The translations under genes were made by a program, and so were the position numbers. Under the pieces are notes generated by a model, which ran no database searches, was not told the DNA's origin, and saw only the letters and a list, made by a program, of their open reading frames with translations. A stretch of DNA of 64,000 bases from assembly GCF_045037415.1 (NCBI RefSeq), contig NZ_CP173438.1; one strand, given 5' to 3'. Of this stretch, positions 31,239-31,286 are shown in pieces; position 1 is the stretch's first letter; each line of letters starts with the position of its first letter. This DNA comes from Escherichia coli (GTDB taxonomy: Bacteria > Pseudomonadota > Gammaproteobacteria > Enterobacterales > Enterobacteriaceae).

Positions 31239-31286
31239 TCAGGGGAAGGTAAAAAAGAATGCGAAGAAAAACGGTGTGTGTTTCAT
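31239..31286 (-). CDS. pheL: PheL, phe operon leader peptide (15 aa, 7 Phe codons)
   Basis: Minus strand ATGAAACACACACCGTTTTTCTTCGCATTCTTTTTTACCTTCCCCTGA encodes [15 protein letters not shown]-stop; K-12 as I recall it has Ile at position 4. Confidence 0.9.
   Translation of the reverse strand: [15 protein letters not shown]

Follow-up and report, generated by a model that had tools for sequence, protein, structure and literature searches.

The stretch of Escherichia coli DNA analysed here (64,000 nucleotides of contig NZ_CP173438.1; hereafter, the window) carries a short leader gene, pheL, in which residue 4 of the encoded peptide is threonine. An earlier note on this DNA, which gave isoleucine at that position for K-12, described the leader as a variant and its threonine as a simple strain marker. 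The locus thus raises the question of which of the two residues is the usual one in the species, and whether the choice between them matters for control of the downstream gene pheA. The account that we favour, and hold with high confidence, is that the window bears a standard pheL-pheA attenuator with the common and ancestral Thr4 (ACA), that the difference from K-12 is most likely neutral, and that Ile arose once, in the lineage or haplotype to which K-12 belongs.

The pheL reading frame

The leader peptide is encoded on the minus strand at 31239..31286 by 15 codons followed by TGA, with the ATG start at 31286..31284 and the stop at 31241..31239; translation of 31239-31286 on the plus strand yields no meaningful leader peptide. 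Seven of the 15 codons, read directly from the minus-strand sequence, specify Phe, and the count given in the earlier note is therefore correct. They are arranged as two runs of three plus one, namely TTT TTC TTC at codons 6-8 (31271..31263), TTC TTT TTT at codons 10-12 (31259..31251) and TTC at codon 14 (31247..31245), with an overall span of 31245..31271 on the minus strand. The 3' end of the gene is TTC CCC TGA (31247..31239, minus strand). A Shine-Dalgarno-like AAGGA is situated on the same strand at 31294..31298, 7 nt 5' of the ATG, and would be the putative ribosome-binding element.

A frame of this length calls for caution, as very short ORFs are frequent by chance and dozens of them are present in the ORF list of the window. 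Several lines of evidence were set against the reading that the 15 codons are a chance, untranslated frame. A search with cmscan returned the Phe_leader RNA element (Rfam RF01859) on the minus strand at 31162..31287, at full length and untruncated (model positions 1-125 of 125), with a score of 132.2 bits (gathering score 55) and an E-value of 9e-25; this is the sole leader-type Rfam match within the window. Because the covariance model is matched end to end with such a score, the ORF can be taken as real, beyond chance. The Phe content and the AAGGA sequence point the same way. A species-wide scan, in which a degenerate pattern for the leader core was applied to one genome per species, recovered the core at pheA-type loci in at least 120 Enterobacterales species genomes, although conservation of the core is built into that design, the pattern having required the core itself. 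The ORF also carries a RefSeq annotation: peptide and DNA are identical to those of WP_001386991.1, 'pheA operon leader peptide PheL', which is annotated as pheL in a genome 100% identical across window positions 24000-38000. Finally, translation of the K-12 pheL has been studied experimentally (PMC3082878). A chance frame is thus vanishingly improbable, and was rejected on Phe content, Rfam match, conservation and RefSeq annotation.

The regulated gene, pheA, encoding the bifunctional chorismate mutase/prephenate dehydratase of 386 amino acids, is found in the ORF list and in RefSeq at 29980..31140 on the minus strand, with 98 bases between the pheL stop (31239) and the pheA start (31140). 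With its minus-strand translation, the RF01859 match and pheA adjoining on the 3' side, the feature is what the earlier note took it to be, an ordinary E. coli phe-operon leader peptide and attenuator, far beyond chance.

Architecture of the attenuator and control region

An intrinsic terminator, corresponding to the attenuator, occupies 31162..31192 of the minus strand and consists of a stem-loop, AAGGCCTCCCAAATCGGGGGGCCTT, at 31192..31168 followed by a T-run. The stem has 10 pairs, 7 of them G-C, in the terminator scan, and is present also in the minimum free energy (MFE) fold and in the Rfam structure. In the ViennaRNA MFE fold of the free leader, a long 1:2 helix (anti-antiterminator or pause) is predicted at 31196..31272 (minus strand). 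Its 5' arm, which begins with the final base of codon 5 (31272), overlaps the Phe codons, in agreement with the Rfam consensus structure line. An antiterminator (2:3) pairing at 31172..31246 on the same strand is predicted by constrained folding, with an energy of -36.8 kcal/mol. In such folds, masking the leader up to the Phe run allowed this predicted antiterminator to take up the 5' arm of the terminator, and masking up to the stop codon returned the predicted terminator fold.

Phe-tRNA-dependent attenuation of pheA is established for K-12 by the literature cited in PMC3082878, and the identity of 280 of 281 bases described below, together with the predicted alternative structures, suggests the same mechanism in the window. 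A ribosome translating pheL would pass seven Phe codons. With charged tRNA-Phe plentiful, it would reach the stop codon, the terminator would form and transcription would end before pheA; with tRNA-Phe scarce, it would stall in the Phe run, the antiterminator would pair and RNA polymerase would enter pheA.

The probable pheA promoter lies on the minus strand at 31312..31341, with a -35 element TTGACA at 31341..31336 and a -10-like TACTGT at 31317..31312. The candidate combines a perfect -35 and an 18-nt spacer with a weak -10-like element (3/6 consensus matches), and a consensus promoter scan of 31100-31420 called no promoter, the -10 being too weak. The 5' neighbour is raiA (31390..31731, minus strand; ORF list and RefSeq annotation of identical DNA), and its terminator hairpin at 31347..31366 on that strand (8 pairs, 6 G-C; terminator scan) bounds the pheL-pheA control region on the 5' side.

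Comparison with K-12

The corresponding locus of K-12 substrain GM4792 is annotated as raiA, 'Phe leader region', pheL (WP_010723158.1) and pheA. In the 281 bp that run between the raiA end and the pheA start, a single base differs between the window and K-12 (alignment column 125). It falls at 31276 on the minus strand, where the window has C, giving codon 4 as ACA (Thr), and K-12 has T, giving ATA (Ile). The two attenuators share the raiA-pheL-pheA-tyrA-aroF locus, the length, the Phe codons and the TTC_CCC_TGA stop context, and differ in nothing but codon 4; the Shine-Dalgarno sequence, TTGACA and -10-like elements, all stems and the terminator are unchanged.

The description of the downstream attenuator as intact is therefore borne out by the 10-pair terminator with its T-run and by a control region that is 280/281 identical to K-12. 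Likewise, the statement that K-12 has Ile at residue 4 proved accurate: in the alignment that had been proposed as a check, Thr4 is absent from the K-12 leader, GM4792 pheL (WP_010723158.1) encoding Ile4, so that the substitution of Thr for Ile (WP_001386991.1 in the window) is as first reported. In practice the RefSeq product name tracks the pheL allele, with 'phe operon leader peptide' used for the Ile form (WP_010723158.1) and the name quoted above for the Thr form.

Distribution of the two alleles in E. coli

The collection of 5426 complete E. coli genomes from which frequencies were estimated over-represents clinical isolates and laboratory derivatives of K-12, and the exact-match counts obtained from it are lower bounds. 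A 139-nt query from the window matched 5425 of the 5426 genomes; in an evenly spaced sample of these matches about half were 100% identical, and K-12 strains stood at 99.3%. A 62-mer of the window comprising the Shine-Dalgarno sequence and the ORF was found exactly in at least 3563 of 5416 matching genomes (5426 in total), among them O157:H7, BL21-AI, APEC O18 and numerous isolates from clinical, animal and environmental sources. The K-12 version of the 62-mer was exact in at least 1383 of the 5426 genomes, and of the 17 such matches that fell in an even sample, 7 came from laboratory strains or derivatives of K-12 (DH1, DH5a, MG1655-based constructs and others). Genomes that share WP_001386991.1 include SK1144 and Ecol_AZ146.

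Thr4 is thus the common, majority allele of E. coli and Ile4, that of K-12, the minority one, with the K-12-like haplotype making up about a quarter of sequenced E. coli. A single-base difference from a reference strain might conceivably be a sequencing or assembly error, or a T-to-C mutation private to one strain, in which case it would be a true strain marker. The same 62-mer in at least 3563 independent complete genomes, the identical 139-mer in roughly half of the even ranking sample and the at least 25 complete genomes in which 14 kb of the window (24000-38000) is matched at 100% identity refute both possibilities and leave them a negligible probability. The allele divides the species into two large groups and has nothing specific to the window strain, so the strain marker claim does not hold.

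The Thr4 allele is already known, being catalogued in RefSeq, while a full-text literature search for either leader peptide string found no paper. In PMC3082878, the K-12 and Shigella flexneri 2a sequences are treated as one identical pheL, and therefore the Ile haplotype is not confined to K-12. A statement on Ile/Thr polymorphism within E. coli was not found in the available portion of that paper's text.

Polarity and history of the substitution

Among the matches listed from the species-wide scan, E. albertii is the sole Escherichia outgroup, and E. fergusonii, E. marmotae, E. ruysiae, E. coli and S. enterica subsp. enterica are absent from them. The pheL of E. albertii (NBRC 107761) encodes a peptide identical to that of the window and has the same attenuator architecture. 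It differs in using ACT for Thr4 and in carrying several synonymous and stem-loop substitutions, and E. albertii and K-12 are separated by 318 differences over the aligned 3.1 kb. The second base of codon 4 is accordingly C in both E. albertii and the window; only the K-12 type has T there.

A local neighbour-joining tree was built from the 3.1 kb between pheL and aroF with the polymorphic column masked, and was rooted on E. albertii. The sample comprised 8 ATA carriers and 8 ACA carriers, from each of which approximately 6 kb around pheL was taken. The ACA carriers are basal and paraphyletic in this tree, with the window placed beside APEC O18, and seven of the eight ATA carriers group together in a cluster that is derived and K-12-like. 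Within the cluster, four sequences are identical over the 3.1 kb to K-12 (represented by DH1, one of the eight), and the others are 1 and 19 bases off. Since E. albertii shares the Thr and the ACA carriers are basal, Thr4 is probably ancestral in Escherichia and the Ile of K-12 derived. The polarity implied by the word 'variant' in the earlier note is then reversed: threonine is present in at least 3563 of 5426 genomes and is shared with E. albertii.

The eighth ATA carrier, F8111-1SC3 (L126), groups with O157:H7 across the whole 3.1 kb. Two more sites co-segregate perfectly with the codon-4 allele in the 16-strain sample; E. albertii has the ACA-carrier state at one of them, which fits a derived ATA haplotype, and the ATA-carrier state at the other, which speaks against it. 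F8111-1SC3 has the ATA codon and both linked sites, yet differs from K-12 at 30 positions, and its flank at pheA-tyrA looks like a local recombination mosaic. Because of this mosaic flank, we infer only as the simplest reading that Ile arose once and then moved a little by recombination.

As judged from these sequences, codon 4 marks the presence or absence of a K-12-like haplotype at the pheA-tyrA locus, and as a marker it tags that haplotype and not an individual strain. K-12 represents the minority and derived state here, and to differ from K-12 is not the same as to be a variant; the pheL of the window is nothing unusual. The window strain itself appears B2/ST131-like, in the limited sense of exact matches to an O25b:H4 strain and of the APEC O18 clustering.

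Consequences of codon 4 for attenuation

The polymorphic base falls within the first 15 positions of the RF01859 model, which are unpaired in the Rfam consensus. When the 151-nt leader was folded with ViennaRNA, both alleles gave the same MFE structure with the same energy (-51.7 kcal/mol), and the base was unpaired with a probability of 0.98 for the Thr allele and 0.85 for the Ile allele. The predicted ribosome-masked antiterminator and terminator folds were likewise unchanged between alleles. With identical predicted folds and energies for both, an effect of the SNP on the structure of the attenuator RNA was rejected.

Comparison among species indicates that the position tolerates a wide range of residues. 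Among the 114 listed species with 15-residue leaders, 14 different residues occur at position 4 (L in 23, V in 18, K in 18, T in 16, I in 10, and others), making it the most variable of leader positions 2-5. Codon 4 is ATA in none of the 114 listed outgroup leaders, and Ile, where present, is encoded by ATC or ATT.

The ATA codon is rare and is decoded by a minor tRNA-Ile dedicated to it. The polymorphism could on this account be functional if the rare ATA slowed the lead ribosome and so altered basal read-through into pheA, either by changed ribosome-polymerase coupling or by partial melting of helix 1:2, with the consequence that pheA control in ACA strains, the window strain among them, would depart slightly from the K-12 model. 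In favour of such an effect, ATA is missing at position 4 from the 114 listed outgroup leaders, and the 5' arm of helix 1:2 would already have its first bases occupied by a ribosome that paused at codon 4. That outgroups lack ATA can, however, be expected from how rare the codon generally is. Moreover, no leader position is less constrained than position 4, healthy natural populations commonly carry either allele, and the RNA structures predicted for the two do not differ.

Experimental background comes from the one mutational study found, that of Gurvich et al. (Nucleic Acids Res 2011; PMC3082878), who mutated pheL codons systematically. In the part of their text available, the nascent peptide influences pheL decoding at some positions, which would be compatible with a role for residue 4, but decoding effects (+1 frameshifting at CCC_UGA) are reported for codons -1, -2 and -10 only. 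Codon -11, which corresponds to the polymorphic codon 4, receives no mention in that part and no effect is reported for it. The authors conclude that CCC_UGA frameshifting leaves pheA expression unaffected. The pheL of the window belongs to the enterobacterial 'CCC_UGA group' defined in that paper by an ORF ending in UUC_CCC_UGA, and shares with it this end, the Phe run and the Pro at -10.

Taken together, a functional polymorphism is considered very unlikely, and the Thr/Ile difference is most likely neutral. An effect on attenuation is not expected, because codon 4 precedes the Phe run and is not part of any predicted stem. On these predictions, with the SNP outside all stems and the folds the same, the expectation voiced in the earlier note that a change outside the Phe run should leave attenuation unaffected stands. 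A small kinetic effect of ATA early in the leader of the K-12 haplotype is conceivable but improbable. The fuller proposal, that the K-12 leader is atypical and derived in having the rare ATA and that pheA read-through or sensitivity to Phe starvation differs by haplotype, has little probability in our estimation; were it true, the textbook K-12 attenuation parameters would not be representative of the species.

Observations at other pheL loci

In E. coli O6:H16 2014EL-1346-6 (L131, locus positions 1-2900), a prophage with an integrase, an HTH protein and small DUF genes lies directly 5' of pheL and replaces raiA and bamD. The sequence diverges from that of K-12 at approximately -75 nt from the pheL ATG, inside the raiA terminator and just 5' of TTGACA. 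Because the prophage junction is located there, the raiA-pheL spacer apparently functions, in some strains, as an attachment site for phage. In BL21-AI (L136, locus positions 3014-3160), the annotated Phe leader region measures 125 nt, versus 126, and pheA starts one base earlier, pointing to the loss of one nucleotide from the leader or from the leader-pheA spacer.

The metagenome-assembled genome 'Enterobacter sp. UW_MP_ENTER5_1' contains two different pheL leaders on two contigs (L021 and L022), one as in Serratia grimesii and the other as in Enterobacter, which suggests a mixed or contaminated bin. A pheL frame without an in-frame ATG is seen in the Klebsiella oxytoca group, Raoultella, Kluyvera, Pseudocitrobacter and a few others (L018, L023, L031, L059, L073, L083, L088, L090, L095, L096, L098, L102 and L113); in these, translation apparently starts at GTG or TTG after an AGGAA-type Shine-Dalgarno sequence.

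Other features of the window

The tmRNA gene ssrA, with the tag ANDENYALAA, is located on the minus strand at 13045..13407. Core genes of the gab/glaH region directly adjoin it (window 1-13407), and because they do so, the ssrA integration hot-spot is empty in the window strain. An O25b:H4 strain is among the exact matches to window 1-13100. Positions 12893-64000 of the window are matched at 99.9% or more by Ecol_AZ146, whose ssrA site, by contrast, is occupied by a type II restriction-modification pair, a GIY-YIG protein and tail genes of a lambdoid prophage.

The remaining Rfam matches are all ordinary for this part of the chromosome. They comprise the RyfD sRNA 5' of clpB (34592-34730, plus strand), an rRNA operon with 16S, tRNA-Glu, StyR-44 element, 23S and 5S (37728-42745, plus strand), and a match to the AsrC antisense-RNA model across the rseC region (60804-61635, minus strand).
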